DNA of 64,000 bases from assembly GCA_021772435.1 (NCBI GenBank), contig JAJFLZ010000018.1, positions 199 to 64,198 on the forward strand, in the 5' to 3' direction. Of the stretch, positions 5,755 to 44,850 are shown piece after piece (the stretch's first letter is position 1; each line of letters starts with the position of its first letter). The position numbers were made by a program, and so were the translations under genes. The notes under the pieces were generated by a model. That model was given only the letters and a program-made list of their open reading frames with translations, was not told the DNA's origin and did no database searches. The stretch comes from Chlamydiota bacterium (lineage in GTDB: Bacteria > Chlamydiota > Chlamydiia > Chlamydiales > JACKPQ01).

Positions 5755-6528
5755 ATGTCATCTATTTCAAAAATCGCAAGCGCACTGCCTTCAGCAGCAC
5801 CAACTCAAAGCACTATCAACAAAATTGTTGAACTTGCGCGAAATAACATCTTTTTAACGGCTGTGATCACCTTAGGTGCAGGCTGTGCAATAGGTTATGC
5901 AGTGCATAAATATGTAATAACGCAAGAAAAACCAATACACTCATTAGAAAATAGCCCAGACATTCTAAAGCTGATCAAAACTCCAAATTTCAAATTCAAA
6001 GACTTTGCTGAAACCTGTAGGCTCGATGTGTATGAAATATTCCGATGTGTTTCCGAAGAAAAAGACACATTCAATAAAAATATTGATGACGCAGATTTCA
6101 AAAAACTACGAACCGATCCGAAAAGTGTTTTGCGCCAAAGCGCTAACATCGCCTACTTCCTCTTGGCCGATACAGATAATGAGCGATCAAACCGATTAGG
6201 CATAGTTAAAACAAATTTAGGATCTACAAGAGAAGCCATTAATCGACTTGTTAAACATAGCTACTTAGAGGACAAAAAGCATCCGATTTACAAATGGTGC
6301 ATCAATCATATCAAAACATCTATTCAAAAAGACGACATCCCATCTGCAGTTCAAACACTAAAAGCTCTAAAAAACTACCATTCTAATTGTAAATTCTGGT
6401 CTAAAATGTATGCTAGTACCCACGGGCATGAGCCTACATCCAATCTCCCACCCAGTATTTCAGAAATTATGGCTGATCTTTCTGATGATGAAAAAAGCAA
6501 ACTACCTAAGCCACTACCAGTTGATTAG
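5755..6528 (+). CDS. Hypothetical single-pass membrane protein (cassette 1 between tsaD tails)
   Basis: 257-aa ORF, AT-rich, with a strong SD aaggag 7 nt upstream of the ATG. It has one hydrophobic helix (IFLTAVITLGAGCAIGYAV). No motif recognised. Confidence 0.7.
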   Translation: MSSISKIASALPSAAPTQSTINKIVELARNNIFLTAVITLGAGCAIGYAVHKYVITQEKPIHSLENSPDILKLIKTPNFKFKDFAETCRLDVYEIFRCVSEEKDTFNKNIDDADFKKLRTDPKSVLRQSANIAYFLLADTDNERSNRLGIVKTNLGSTREAINRLVKHSYLEDKKHPIYKWCINHIKTSIQKDDIPSAVQTLKALKNYHSNCKFWSKMYASTHGHEPTSNLPPSISEIMADLSDDEKSKLPKPLPVD

Positions 6529-6542
6529 TAAAAACGTCCCTG

Positions 6543-6651
6543 TCTCTCGACAGACAACGCCGCCATGATCGCAGGTCTTGGCTACCACGTTTTTAAGGCC
6601 AAAGGCCCCGACCGCTTGGACCTCGAAGCCCTGCCTAAAATCCCTTTTTGA
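6543..6651 (+). repeat. Direct repeat: second copy of the tsaD 3' tail (copy 1 = 5589-5697)
   Basis: Read by eye, 105 of 109 nt are identical to 5589-5697. The four differences lie in the last 21 nt and keep the peptide EALP(R>K)IPF plus a stop codon (taa>tga). Confidence 0.95.
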
Positions 6652-6695
6652 CTGTATCTAAAACTTTTAGTAAACTTCTGTTAGGAGTTATTTAA

Positions 6696-8288
6696 ATGCC
6701 TAAAAAATTACCTATCGGTGTCCAGTCCATCGAGAAGCTTTTATCCGAAGACTTTATCTATGTTGATAAAACAGACAAAATTAAACAGCTAATTGACAGC
6801 GGAAGCCACTATTTCATAGCGCGTCCAAGGCGATTTGGAAAATCTTTATTTGTAAGCACACTAGAAGCTATTTTAAAAGGGAACAAAGACCTGTTTGCAG
6901 ATTGCAAAATCGCTAAAACAGACTATGACTGGGTAGAGCACCCAGTGATTCACTTCGACTTTGCCCAAATTCCAAATAAATCTACTGATGATCTAGAAAA
7001 TAGTATTAAGCGAAAACTAGAACACGTTGCTAAAGAACACAATATTTCCATCGAAATCCCTACCTTGCAAGAGGGGCTGATCAATCTAGTCAAAAAACTT
7101 GCAGAAAAAAACCAAGTAGCCATTCTGGTCGACGAGTACGACAAACCCAAGGTGGATCATCTAAATAATATCGAGATAGCAGATAGTAACCGCGATTTTT
7201 TACGTCGATTTTTTGGTACACTTAAAGGGTTAGATCAGCATCTAAAATTTGTTTTTTTTACAGGTGTTAGCAAATTCGCTCAGGTTTCTCTTTTCTCCGG
7301 CTTAAATAACTTAGAAGACCTGACAATGGACCCAAGTAGCTCTGAGCTGATGGGGTACACAAAAGACGAGCTCAAGGAAAATTTTAAAGAACACATTGCA
7401 GAATTAACAAAGAAAACAAATTGTGCCCCTGAACAGATTTTGAAGATGGTAAAAGAGTGGTACAATGGCTACTGTTTTTCTCAAAATTGTGTTCCTGTCT
7501 ACAATCCTTTTTCAACGCTTTCCTATTTTAAGCGAGGCATCTTTCACGGATACTGGTTTAGCACTGGCACTCCTGCATTCTTAATCGAACAAATCCGTAA
7601 AATGCCCATGCTGTCTACGCAACTCAGCGGCGCTTTATCTACAAGCTCGGAGCTACTAGATATTCTTTCCATGACAGATGTCGACCTAAACGCTTTGATG
7701 TGGCAAACCGGCTACCTAACCATTACAGCTTACGACCCCCAAACAGATCTATATACCCTTGATTTTCCGAACAAAGAAGTGCGAGGAGCCTTTTTTAATT
7801 CCTTGATTAGAGAATTTGCTAAACTCAATTTATCAGGTGTTACAGGCAATGCAAAAGCAATCTGCTCTCATTTAGCCAAATTAGATTTTGAAACTTTTTT
7901 TAAAACCATCAATGCGTACTACGCCAAAATCCCCTACCACCTGTTCACGCAAGCAAAAGAGGGATTTTATCACGCAGTATTTTTGTGCTTGATGGAAGGA
8001 ATAGGTTTACAAGTGAGGGCTGAAGATCCTACGAATATGGGCCGCCTGGATTTAGTCATCGAAACCGACCAAACCGTCTATATTTTTGAGCTCAAAGTCG
8101 ACAAAAGTGCAACTGTTGCTCTAGACCAAGCTGAACTTAATCGCTATTGTGAAAAGTATTCACACCAAAACCGCAATATTGCCATGATCGGCGTTAACTT
8201 TGCCACAGCGACTCGCAACATCTCCGATTGGGCAGTTAATCTTTATGCTCCGGATGCTAACTTAATCCAAAAATATGCGTTGCTTTAG
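6696..8288 (+). CDS. AAA-ATPase-like / PD-(D/E)XK nuclease family protein (cassette 2)
   Basis: 530-aa ORF. The N-terminus LPIGVQSIEKLLSEDFIYVDKTDKIKQLIDSGSHYFIARPRRFGKSLFVSTLE matches the predicted AAA-ATPase (PF09820-type) family that carries a C-terminal PDDEXK_9 domain (RLDLVIE...IFELKVD). SD aggag lies upstream. Confidence 0.8.
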   Translation: MPKKLPIGVQSIEKLLSEDFIYVDKTDKIKQLIDSGSHYFIARPRRFGKSLFVSTLEAILKGNKDLFADCKIAKTDYDWVEHPVIHFDFAQIPNKSTDDLENSIKRKLEHVAKEHNISIEIPTLQEGLINLVKKLAEKNQVAILVDEYDKPKVDHLNNIEIADSNRDFLRRFFGTLKGLDQHLKFVFFTGVSKFAQVSLFSGLNNLEDLTMDPSSSELMGYTKDELKENFKEHIAELTKKTNCAPEQILKMVKEWYNGYCFSQNCVPVYNPFSTLSYFKRGIFHGYWFSTGTPAFLIEQIRKMPMLSTQLSGALSTSSELLDILSMTDVDLNALMWQTGYLTITAYDPQTDLYTLDFPNKEVRGAFFNSLIREFAKLNLSGVTGNAKAICSHLAKLDFETFFKTINAYYAKIPYHLFTQAKEGFYHAVFLCLMEGIGLQVRAEDPTNMGRLDLVIETDQTVYIFELKVDKSATVALDQAELNRYCEKYSHQNRNIAMIGVNFATATRNISDWAVNLYAPDANLIQKYALL

Positions 8289-42727: not shown

Positions 42728-43447
42728 ATGGATTTTTCCAAGCTAGAGAAAAAGAAACAACTTACCGCACTGAAATCACTACCTCCTTCACTTGCAAAAT
42801 GGTTTGATATCGAACTTACCTATACCAGCAATGCCATTGAAGGAAATTCCTTATCGAGAGAAGAAACTCGCCTCATCGTGGAAGAAGGTGCCATCATCGA
42901 AGGCAAATCTCTAGTTGAACACTTAGAAGCGACGAATCACACGAGGGCTTTAGATTTCATCAAAGGTTTAGTCAATCTCAAACCTCTTGAAATTACCGAA
43001 AACCACATCCTAGGAATTCATCATTCGATTTTACGTGGCATTGACGATGATAATGCGGGGAGATATCGACAAGTCATTGTTCGCATCTCAGGTTCTACAG
43101 TTGTTTTCCCCAACCCGATTAAAGTACCAGATCTCATTAGTGACTTCATGCAATGGCTTCACTCTTGCAAAGACCATCCCCTCCTACTAGCCGCCATGGC
43201 ACACTACAAATTGGTTACAATTCATCCCTTCATTGATGGAAACGGTCGCACAGCCCGCTTACTGATGAATTTGCTGGCTATGTCTGCGGGTTATCCCCCT
43301 GCTATCATCTCGCCAGAAAACCGCCTAGAGTACATCAACGCTTTAGAAAAAGCTCAACTTGGTGGATCGCTTGATGATTTCCTGCAGATCGTCTACACAG
43401 CCATTGACCGGTCCCTCGATATCTACTTAGAAGCAGCAGAAAACTAA
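42728..43447 (+). CDS. fic: Fic-domain protein (class II type with N-terminal inhibitory motif)
   Basis: 239-aa ORF with the canonical Fic motif HPFIDGNGRTARLLMN and an N-terminal TSNAIEGN, which fits the (S/T)xxxE(G/N) auto-inhibition motif. The ATG lies 1 nt after the nadK stop. It is visibly lower in GC than nadK. Confidence 0.9.
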   Translation: MDFSKLEKKKQLTALKSLPPSLAKWFDIELTYTSNAIEGNSLSREETRLIVEEGAIIEGKSLVEHLEATNHTRALDFIKGLVNLKPLEITENHILGIHHSILRGIDDDNAGRYRQVIVRISGSTVVFPNPIKVPDLISDFMQWLHSCKDHPLLLAAMAHYKLVTIHPFIDGNGRTARLLMNLLAMSAGYPPAIISPENRLEYINALEKAQLGGSLDDFLQIVYTAIDRSLDIYLEAAEN

Positions 43448-43476
43448 TAACTAATATTCAGCATCTTACAAAAATA

Positions 43477-43560
43477 ATGCGTTGACAACGCCGTGTTTTA
43501 CTCTAAACCATGCGCTACCAACGCATGAAAACAGCCCAAACCATGCGTTGACAACGCATG
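43477..43560. promoter_or_regulatory. Three palindromic sites phased at exactly 33 bp (candidate operator array)
   Basis: atgcgttgacaacgc (43477-43491) is a partial palindrome. catgcgctaccaacgcatg (43509-43527) has 6-bp arms. catgcgttgacaacgcatg (43542-43560) is a perfect 9+1+9 palindrome. Copies 2 and 3 share the prefix aaacc. Confidence 0.7.
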
Positions 43561-43576
43561 ATTTTCATGGTATTAT
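43548..43576 (+). promoter_or_regulatory. Sigma70-type promoter TTGACA-17-TATTAT embedded in the perfect palindrome
   Basis: TTGACA (43548-43553) forms the centre of palindrome 3. After a 17-nt spacer, tattat lies at 43571-43576. The ATG at 43594 follows, with aagg 6 nt upstream. Confidence 0.55.
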
Positions 43577-43593
43577 TTGAAAAAAGGCCAAAG

Positions 43594-44850
43594 ATGGATA
43601 AAGAACTATTAAAACAAGTCATTGCAGATCAAAGAGAGTACAGTCCTCCACGCACGTTTTTTGATCGAACTCAAGCACATGCAATCAGAAGTTATATCCA
43701 TGACCCTAATATTCTGATTATCACCGGAATCAGGCGTTCAGGAAAATCGACGATCCAACGGAAATTGCAGCGGGAGATGCCTGAATCGGACTATTACTTC
43801 AATTTCGACGATGATCGCTTAGTCCGGTTTACAATTGAAGACTTCCAACTCCTCTTTGAAACATTTATTGAGCTGTATGGCAAACAAGCCACTTTTTATT
43901 TCGACGAAATACAAAACATTGAGGGCTGGGAGCGGTTCATTCGCAGGCTTTATGAACAAGGCTACAAAATCTTTATCACGGGTTCAAATGCCAAGTTGCT
44001 TAGCAAGGAGCTAGGCACTCACCTAACAGGCCGATGTATTCAAATCGAGATCTACCCTCTTTCATTCAAAGAGATCGTTTTGCACGAATATCCCACAGCG
44101 TTAAATAAACAAGCCATCTCCTCTACGGATAAAGGCATGCTTTTGCGCCTTTTTAACGATTACCTTCAGCATGGAGGCATTCCAGAATATTACAAGTTTC
44201 GCAAACCTGAATATTTGAAAGAACTCTACGAAGGAATTATTTACCGCGATATTGTAGCTAGATATAATATTGCAAACGAAAAGCCCCTTCGAGAACTCGC
44301 CTATTACTTTGCTAGCAATATTGGGAAAGAATTTAGTTATGCAAAGCTTACAAAAACTGTTGGTCTTAGTAGCCCTCACACAATTTCAAACTACTGCGAC
44401 TACTTAGAAAAATGCTATCTCTGTTTTTTTGTTAACCGCTATAGCCATTCTCTGAAAAAGCAAATCAAAAATAACAAAAAATGTTACATGATTGATCCTG
44501 CTCTTATCCGCACAGTAGGATTTCGAGTCAGCGAAGATAAAGGTCGATTGCTTGAAAACATCGTTTTTTTGCATTTAAAAATGCAGGGGTCTGAAATCTA
44601 TTTTCACAAAGGCCAAAGAGAATGTGACTTTGTCATCAGACAAGATAATCGCATTACTCAAGCTATCCAAGTCGCTACAAATCTTTCTAACGAAGATACA
44701 AGAGATCGTGAAATCAGCGGTCTGCTTGAAGCTATGGAAACTTACAACCTACAAAAAGGCCTGATCATCACCGAGAATGAGCCAGATAGCCTTAAAATAG
44801 GCAAGTCTCAAATCGAAATGATCCCCATCTGGAAATGGCTGCTGAATTAA
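43594..44850 (+). CDS. Orphan AAA+ ATPase (AAA_14 + DUF4143 type)
   Basis: It has Walker A GIRRSGKST, Walker B YFDEIQ, and a C-terminal ECDFVI nuclease-like motif. The start at ATG 43594 (MDKELLKQV) is preferred over the track start 43558, which lies inside the palindrome and promoter. Its stop overlaps the convergent cydB stop (4 nt). Confidence 0.8.
   Translation: MDKELLKQVIADQREYSPPRTFFDRTQAHAIRSYIHDPNILIITGIRRSGKSTIQRKLQREMPESDYYFNFDDDRLVRFTIEDFQLLFETFIELYGKQATFYFDEIQNIEGWERFIRRLYEQGYKIFITGSNAKLLSKELGTHLTGRCIQIEIYPLSFKEIVLHEYPTALNKQAISSTDKGMLLRLFNDYLQHGGIPEYYKFRKPEYLKELYEGIIYRDIVARYNIANEKPLRELAYYFASNIGKEFSYAKLTKTVGLSSPHTISNYCDYLEKCYLCFFVNRYSHSLKKQIKNNKKCYMIDPALIRTVGFRVSEDKGRLLENIVFLHLKMQGSEIYFHKGQRECDFVIRQDNRITQAIQVATNLSNEDTRDREISGLLEAMETYNLQKGLIITENEPDSLKIGKSQIEMIPIWKWLLN

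Follow-up and report, generated by a model that had tools for sequence, protein, structure and literature searches.

Which gene does a row of evenly spaced palindromes serve, and which protein reads it? The question is raised by the 146-bp intergenic control region in front of a gene for an AAA_14/DUF4143 ATPase in a Chlamydiota bacterium (contig JAJFLZ010000018.1 of assembly GCA_021772435.1). We analysed a 64-kb stretch of this contig, here called the window, together with homologous loci. An earlier look at the window (the original prediction) had described three palindromes in phase as an operator array that overlaps a promoter close to consensus, a layout that is supported by 84 dereplicated loci and six blind-chosen ones. 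Very probably, the palindromes are operators to which a protein binds and through which the ATPase promoter is controlled. As to what binds there, the same prediction had named Fic (encoded next to the array), the ATPase or a factor acting in trans. The lack of a conserved neighbour, a predicted winged helix-turn-helix (wHTH) and protein–operator co-variation favour the ATPase, and Fic is ruled out. We therefore consider, with a probability of roughly 0.65, that the ATPase is the binder and repressor of its own gene and that gene and array form a self-contained autorepression module.

Three phased dyads upstream of the ATPase gene

Repeat and inverted-repeat searches, a promoter scan and shuffle controls were run on the window. 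The repeat search returned a family of three direct-repeat copies with a unit of 20–24 nt at positions 43472, 43505 and 43538, i.e., in steps of 33 and 33 bp. This places the ATGCG cores at 43477, 43510 and 43543 and bears out the three dyad sites that had been described from these positions with a 33-bp period. The features of the control region and the gene behind it are as follows, with the centres of the sites given relative to the predicted transcription start site (TSS):

43476–43494, no strand assigned: site 1, probable distal operator, AATGCGTTGACAACGCCGT, 7 of 9 arm pairs, centre at about −99
43509–43527, no strand assigned: site 2, probable middle operator, CATGCGCTACCAACGCATG, 7 of 9 arm pairs, centre at about −66
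43542–43560, no strand assigned: site 3, probable promoter-proximal operator, CATGCGTTGACAACGCATG, perfect 9+1+9 palindrome, centre at about −33
43548–43553, plus strand: −35 hexamer TTGACA at the exact centre of site 3
43568–43576, plus strand: extended −10 element TGgTATTAT, with TG at 43568–43569 and TATTAT at 43571–43576, 17 nt past the −35 hexamer
about 43583, plus strand: predicted TSS, from standard sigma70 spacing
43584–43587, plus strand: Shine-Dalgarno-like motif AAGG, seen in the sequence
43594–44850, plus strand: AAA_14/DUF4143 ATPase-nuclease gene (PADLOC PDC-S01), 418 amino acids, identified by Pfam and PADLOC hidden Markov models (HMMs)

Site 3 is indeed the perfect 19-bp palindrome centred on TTGACA that had been described. 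Its extended dyad covers 43538–43564, with arms of 13 nt and 92% complementarity, and it is the window counterpart of a 29-bp consensus found in the chlamydial clade (aAAACCgTGCATTGACAAtGCACGGTTTt). TTGACA was also correctly located inside site 1, the sequence of which contains it, and the centre of site 2 differs from this hexamer. Site 1, with an extended dyad at 43471–43499, is kept in position in a relative with 89% protein identity (locus L002). Between the window and this relative, site 2 shows a symmetric change on both arms, from CATGCG..CGCATG to TGTGCG..TGCACA. The 19-mer of site 3, allowing up to three mismatches, gave 4 strand-matches in the window vs 0.05 expected, and 0 of 100 shuffles reached 4. 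A looser pattern found the three sites and two weak chance matches across the 64 kb. Pattern searches revealed no second array, either in the window or in the homologous loci.

The promoter scan matched 11 of 12 positions with TTGACA, a 17-nt spacer and TATTAT, plus the TG extension, and so recovered the promoter that had been placed in front of the ATPase ATG at 43594. An optimal operator core with a central A reads TTGACA, which means that the operator intrinsically mimics a −35 hexamer. Since all homologues begin with MD(K/R)E.LK, we take the start at 43594 as real, and judged from this alignment it is the true start of the ATPase. An upstream ATG at 43558 was rejected; it sits within site 3 and is not conserved.

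Two side observations concern the ends of the gene. A 15-nt direct repeat (TGAAAACAGCCCAAA / TGAAAAAAGGCCAAA) occurs at 43526–43540 and 43578–43592, 52 bp apart; its second copy spans the predicted leader and ribosome-binding region, and the repeat may be due to chance. The ATPase and cydB genes are convergent, and their 3′ ends share 4 bp (44847–44850); L002 shows the same overlap. Because of this overlap, there is no terminator between the two.

The array among homologues of the ATPase

Homologues of the ATPase with 67–89% identity are abundant in environmental Chlamydiota. L002, the closest relative, keeps the synteny xseA-xseB-dxs-NAD kinase-ATPase-cydBA and all three sites at 33-bp spacing and lacks the fic gene. 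L003 and L004 have unrelated neighbours, with a dyad and a −10 element still directly upstream of the ATPase gene (L002–L004 share 70–89% identity with the window protein). When six-frame open reading frames (ORFs) from the 84 dereplicated loci were clustered, the ATPase alone was common to all of them, and the next-largest cluster comprised 10 loci. On the evidence of these comparisons, the array belongs to the ATPase gene and not to Fic, and nothing else appears to travel with it. Fic was rejected as binder or partner, given that L002 keeps its three sites without it and that Fic-like ORFs occur in 5 of the 84 loci. The observation that no obvious helix-turn-helix (HTH) repressor gene adjoins the array also held, as no classical small HTH gene lies beside it.

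The layout extends far beyond the Chlamydiota. A protein search returned relatives labelled Legionellales, Elusimicrobiota, Gammaproteobacteria and Bacteroidales, and a metagenome scan added 80 more loci, down to 46% identity and including Bacteroidota-like contigs from the human gut. The 200 nt upstream of each homologue contained two to three palindromes in nearly every lineage, and the Bacteroidota-like, Elusimicrobiota, Legionellales, Gammaproteobacteria and Chlamydiota cassettes, among others, share the 33-bp layout. With a palindrome called as 9+1+9 with at least 7 of 9 pairs, we counted 106 palindromes in 64 dereplicated upstream regions vs 33.3 ± 5.5 in shuffles; a control stretch from −600 to −400 gave 23 in 51 sequences. 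Pairs of palindromes exactly 33 bp apart numbered 15 vs 0.11 expected in these 64 regions. An autocorrelation of direct repeats, which makes no use of palindromicity, had its sole main peak at an offset of 33 and a smaller one at 66; the mean best 17-nt self-match at offset 33 was 12.7 vs approximately 8.3 elsewhere, and at least 14 of 17 positions matched in 22 of the 64 loci. Phased dyads were also present in all six of six further homologues that were picked by protein sequence alone, with the DNA fetched afterwards. An example is L140, in which TTCATATTG(T/A)CAATATGAA occurs three times, at −97, −64 and −31.

The relation between array and promoter is likewise conserved. Of the 39 loci of the chlamydial clade, 37 have a sigma70-like promoter with 9 or more of 12 positions matched, many of them with all 12. 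The dyad is centred on the −35 hexamer in 28 of these 37 promoters and in other lineages, too. In 24 chlamydial loci there is a second copy 33 bp upstream, and none has it downstream, whereas other sigma70-type lineages carry the second copy 33 bp downstream, across the −10/+1 region. In Bacteroidota-like loci, three sites spaced by 33 bp end directly before a TAnnTTTG box, which we take to be the consensus element there. Thus, the overlap with the core promoter is constant and the placement of the auxiliary sites varies, as would be expected if transcription were controlled by occlusion.

We also scanned 185,579 species genomes with CRTGCRTTGACAAYGCAYG, counting exact matches to that one pattern only. 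The scan yielded 51 stretches, 16 of which have an ATPase homologue starting 35–90 bp downstream. All 12 matches in entries labelled Chlamydi* adjoin an ATPase homologue, one of them being the sole match within a contig of 2.03 Mb. The remaining 35 matches came from unrelated phyla, compared with approximately 69 expected by chance, and included matches in coding regions. A dispersed element of the repetitive extragenic palindromic (REP) type had been named as the finding that would undo the operator, and the 12 chlamydial matches speak against it. The many scattered copies typical of REP elements or miniature inverted-repeat transposable elements (MITEs) were not found, and the 64-kb window holds no further copies. 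As all 12 chlamydial matches adjoin ATPase homologues, the genome-wide search that had been suggested for defining a regulon revealed no wider one; exact matches away from ATPase loci stayed at chance level. Four Nitrosospira genomes (L091, L098, L101 and L127) share the 19-mer CGTGCGTTGACAATGCATG, which in L127 lies at about 1741–1759 inside an ispH-like coding region (…IVERALTMHGAP…). Because of this position within the ORF, we consider it a chance match kept by protein conservation.

Several observations concern the neighbourhoods of the cassette. The fic gene of the window (42728–43447) starts 1 nt past the NAD kinase stop codon, and its absence from the syntenic L002 suggests a recent insertion or loss between NAD kinase and array. 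The encoded protein matches PADLOC SoFic and PDC-S04, carries HPFIDGNGRTAR, and has an N-terminal SNAIEG motif that resembles an inhibitory helix. In L003 (7582–11415), an AbiEii-family gene follows the ATPase and two ORFs cluster with the window Fic, giving the locus a defence-island-like appearance. The cassette of L141 (1–2078) lies between the genes for archease and RtcB, normally an RNA-repair pair. In L077, a second, divergent AAA_14/DUF4143 paralogue (6083–7150, approximately 32% identity) follows the first at a distance of about 850 bp; none of the other loci examined has such a tandem pair. Among the 2.9 million viral contigs of IMG/VR, we found two distant homologues (L137 and L138, 32–39% identity), the upstream region of L137 not being clearly interpretable. 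As there are only these two, the ATPase clade is essentially absent from known viruses, and carriage by phages is unsupported.

The ATPase-nuclease as candidate binder

The protein exceeds the Pfam gathering cut-offs for AAA_14 (9e-36, 123 bits vs 27) and DUF4143 (6.6e-25, 88 bits vs 28.1); a match to Mrr_cat was weak. The PADLOC HMM for PDC-S01 (PDLC04787) matches it at 3e-119. With 30 close homologues as input, AlphaFold2 (AF2) gave residues 200–314 a predicted local distance difference test score (pLDDT) of approximately 35. An alignment of 143 sequences, obtained in a second search for homologues, yielded a model with a pLDDT of 91.3 and a predicted template modelling score of 0.90. In the model, lid helices follow the AAA+ core, and after them come a winged helix and a PD-(D/E)XK-type domain; the last two correspond to these parts of the gene:

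44275–44493, plus strand: predicted wHTH, residues 228–300, AF2, topology H-b-H-H-b-wing-b
44539–44826, plus strand: predicted PD-(D/E)XK (Mrr-like) nuclease-fold domain, residues 316–411, Pfam, alignment and AF2

The modelled wHTH consists of H1 (230–241), b1, H2 (249–256), H3 (261–273), b2 (277–282), the wing and b3 (295–299). It appears to be a canonical winged helix, with H3 assigned as the recognition helix, and we propose it as the DNA-reading head. The homologue alignment supplies conserved residues for this region: T263, which opens H3, and K288, Q290, K295 and K296, with a near-invariant basic SLKKQ..KK in the wing. In the PD-(D/E)XK-fold domain, E321, D345 and Q359 are invariant. Foldseek neighbours of the model include STAND proteins, RFC, Avs4/Avs5, RuvB, ORC/Cdc6, MuB and TnsC at TM-scores of 0.2–0.38, and because these scores are low, the likeness indicates a fold class only. 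No sequence relative of the full-length family profile was found in the PDB, and sequence searches for the identity of the winged helix matched this region to DUF4143 alone in Pfam. According to the model, the ATPase can be described as a minimal AAA+ protein of ORC/STAND-like type that bears a winged helix and, at its C-terminus, a PD-(D/E)XK domain.

The dyads are 27–29 bp long, with half-sites of 13–14 bp. Over its 29 positions, the chlamydial consensus (29 species-level loci) reaches up to approximately 1.8 bits, compared with almost 0 bits in its flanks. Family-wide, the inner core ATTG-N-CAAT persists, and each of the outer five arm positions occurs as three or four Watson-Crick pair types with the arms still complementary; as the sites were selected for palindromicity, this survey of arm pairs describes the pattern and does not test it. 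The arms are identical among the sites of one locus and differ by protein lineage, examples being CGTGCATTG, CCTCCATTG, CTTCTATTA, TTCATATTG, TTTCAATTG and TACTCATTA. Within Chlamydiae, H or N at residue 262 pairs with GTGC arms and G or S with GTTC arms. We compared operator divergence with the divergence of 11-residue segments in an unbiased scan along the protein, with whole-protein divergence partialled out. For all 51 loci, the winged-helix segments were 0.123 above the remaining ones, a difference that 0 of 1000 permutations reached, and the top segments lay at 272–306. For the 27 non-chlamydial loci, the excess was 0.173 (1 of 1000 permutations), with the top segment at 258–268, where the recognition helix begins. 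Mutual information calculated by columns between protein and operator was uninformative, because phylogeny and a few mis-called sites dominated it.

We infer from these data the ATPase as the binder, repression rather than activation, and cooperative binding. That the ATPase most likely represses its own gene follows from the array travelling with that gene across many phyla. In the proposed mechanism, dimers of the ATPase would bind the dyad sites through the winged helix. Since the −35 hexamer is the centre of site 3, occupancy of this site would compete with the sigma factor and could repress the near-consensus promoter. The other two sites, 33 and 66 bp upstream, are three helical turns apart and would lie on roughly the same face, so that they may add cooperativity via oligomerisation of the AAA+ domains. 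The outcome would be tight negative feedback, by which a potentially toxic nuclease is kept at a low level.

A number of points weigh against autorepression by the ATPase. Co-variation within the chlamydial clade gave no signal, the operators hardly varying there, and Mantel-type permutations leave some phylogenetic inertia in the signal that was obtained. A one-residue code at position 262 was rejected, as H262 in L139 pairs with TTCTC arms. DNA binding by the winged helix is itself a prediction, and the winged helices of STAND and AAA+ modules are often structural rather than DNA-reading. A half-site of 13–14 bp is long for one winged helix, for which reason another region of the protein or a second protomer may take part. 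Finally, the preference for repression over activation is read from the position of the sites alone.

Other explanations and known systems

One may ask whether the ATPase binds the array chiefly for a purpose other than transcriptional control. The sites could serve assembly or loading, in likeness to the ORB elements beside archaeal orc1/cdc6, nucleate an AAA+ oligomer, or mark self-DNA for the nuclease, with the promoter overlap being secondary. The order of AAA+ core, lid and winged helix, the likeness to ORC/Cdc6, STAND (Avs4/Avs5), MuB and TnsC, and the length and rigid spacing of the dyads would all suit such a role; Avs proteins are reported to form tetramers, and two dyads offer four half-sites. 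However, whatever the promoter type and the placement of the auxiliary sites, one of the sites invariably contains core promoter elements or borders on them. Such an overlap is what selection for transcriptional control predicts, and no second array was seen in the loci or the window. We therefore hold a primary assembly function to be unlikely, albeit with a real share of the probability.

Alternatively, a separate host transcription factor encoded elsewhere might regulate the ATPase gene in trans through the array. The absence of an adjoining classical small HTH gene and the predicted nature of DNA binding by the ATPase would both fit, and RptR is an example of a trans-acting regulator on defence islands (PMC12255303). 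Against such a factor stands the 33-bp layout, which is kept across phyla with arms that follow the ATPase lineage and not any common neighbour. The factor would need to move and co-diversify with an unlinked gene, and the exact site occurs in chlamydial genomes only at the ATPase gene. A trans-acting host factor is in our view improbable.

Much less probable still are RNA or DNA hairpins, which would act as bidirectional intrinsic terminators or as insulators against read-through from the fic and NAD kinase genes. On either strand, sites 1 and 3 were picked up by a terminator scan, the chlamydial consensus is bordered by runs of A and T (AAAACC...GGTTTT), and sites 2 and 3 fold better than shuffles (z of −4 to −6). 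Yet the stems on the plus strand are weak (−6.5 to −9.8 kcal/mol) with T-runs of 4 nt, and the AT-only dyads of other lineages would be too unstable as stems. Moreover, conservation, at up to approximately 1.8 bits over 29 bp, extends beyond the pairing of the arms to their primary sequence, and the same sequence recurs at all sites of a locus. A terminator provides no rationale for the 33-bp phasing or for a −35 hexamer at the hairpin centre, and in other lineages one site lies within the leader of the gene itself. Searches against Rfam gave nothing above the gathering score, the two sub-threshold matches reaching 20.5 vs 65.6 and 17.9 vs 90 bits. A chance pattern or a dispersed REP/MITE-like repeat unrelated to the promoter has practically no probability left, for although simple counting lets one expect approximately 0.2 perfect 9+1+9 palindromes in 64 kb, the window holds no more copies, the matches outnumber those of every shuffle, array and gene are conserved together in approximately 90 loci and, in chlamydial genomes, matches occur only at the ATPase gene, so that the comparative data already refute it.

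The reading of the ATPase as its own repressor has parallels in known systems. Circuits of the C.PvuII and C.AhdI type combine tandem palindromic operators, self-contained feedback and operator sequences specific to each system. The array resembles these C-protein/C-box circuits of restriction-modification units in placing tandem palindromic operators on the promoter of a mobile nuclease unit. In contrast to them, the proposed binder is the 418-residue AAA+/winged-helix/nuclease protein itself, and no gene for a small HTH C-protein is conserved beside the cassette among the ORFs of the window, L002–L004 or the 84 loci. The sites differ as well: C-boxes form closely spaced OL and OR operators, whereas the array consists of 27–29 bp dyads with a rigid 33-bp period. 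Another parallel is provided by the DnaA boxes at the dnaA promoter and by archaeal Orc1/Cdc6 with its origin recognition boxes (ORB), where an AAA+ protein likewise has phased sites upstream of its own gene. Unlike in those cases, the sites of the array are strict dyads that embed the −35 hexamer, the ATPase bears a C-terminal PD-(D/E)XK domain, and there is no relation to DnaA or Orc1 at the sequence level. The comparison with a replication-origin-type array is one of analogy, drawn from the ORC/Cdc6-like fold neighbours.

Among defence systems, WYL regulators of the BrxR/CapW type act as dedicated repressors. The locus shares with these and with RptR (PMC12255303) a defence-type gene under a dyad operator at the promoter. 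Those regulators, however, are encoded by dedicated genes upstream of multi-gene systems, whereas here there is no regulator gene and the effector protein itself appears to carry the DNA-reading domain. Autoregulation via phased dyad operators is thus a known layout; what is new is the proposed class of binder, the 33-bp period across phyla and the lineage-specific arms.

What the array offers for the PDC-S01 family

DUF4143/COG1373 has been described as a PD-(D/E)XK family of unknown function (PMC3424549). PDC-S01 was listed among 145 untested PADLOC candidates (bioRxiv 2024.01.29.577857), and ranks as the fourth most common prokaryotic defence type, an ATPase fused to PD-(D/E)XK that is unvalidated (PMC12988326). 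One representative gave no protection against T4, T5 and T7 in E. coli; it was expressed as coding sequence only from a vector promoter inducible by isopropyl β-D-1-thiogalactopyranoside, without the native promoter-operator (both bioRxiv 2024.09.26.614923). The native operator missing from this heterologous test is a possible explanation of its failure. Full-text searches on DUF4143, COG1373, PDC-S01 and AAA_14 returned nothing on regulation or DNA binding, and the operator array is a new observation for the PDC-S01 family. It constitutes the first concrete handle on these proteins, as it supplies a predicted DNA ligand for each member together with a predicted DNA-reading domain, and the family provides a natural set of protein–operator pairs for working out recognition. 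For the window, it means that a 146-bp intergenic region of an environmental chlamydia can be annotated as controlling a mobile cassette of a single gene.

A broader reading joins these elements, and we advance it tentatively, as an idea that is rather doubtful as a whole. PDC-S01 proteins may be sequence-specific DNA-binding AAA+ nucleases, each lineage of which has its own “address” dyad of 27–29 bp, repeated every 33 bp at its own promoter. These dyads would serve both as feedback operator and as template for AAA+ assembly, and diversification of the arms would keep co-resident or incoming copies from interfering with one another. If this were true, the family would represent a new class of single-gene, self-regulating and horizontally mobile modules, and thousands of protein–operator pairs encoded in genomes would allow their recognition code to be read.

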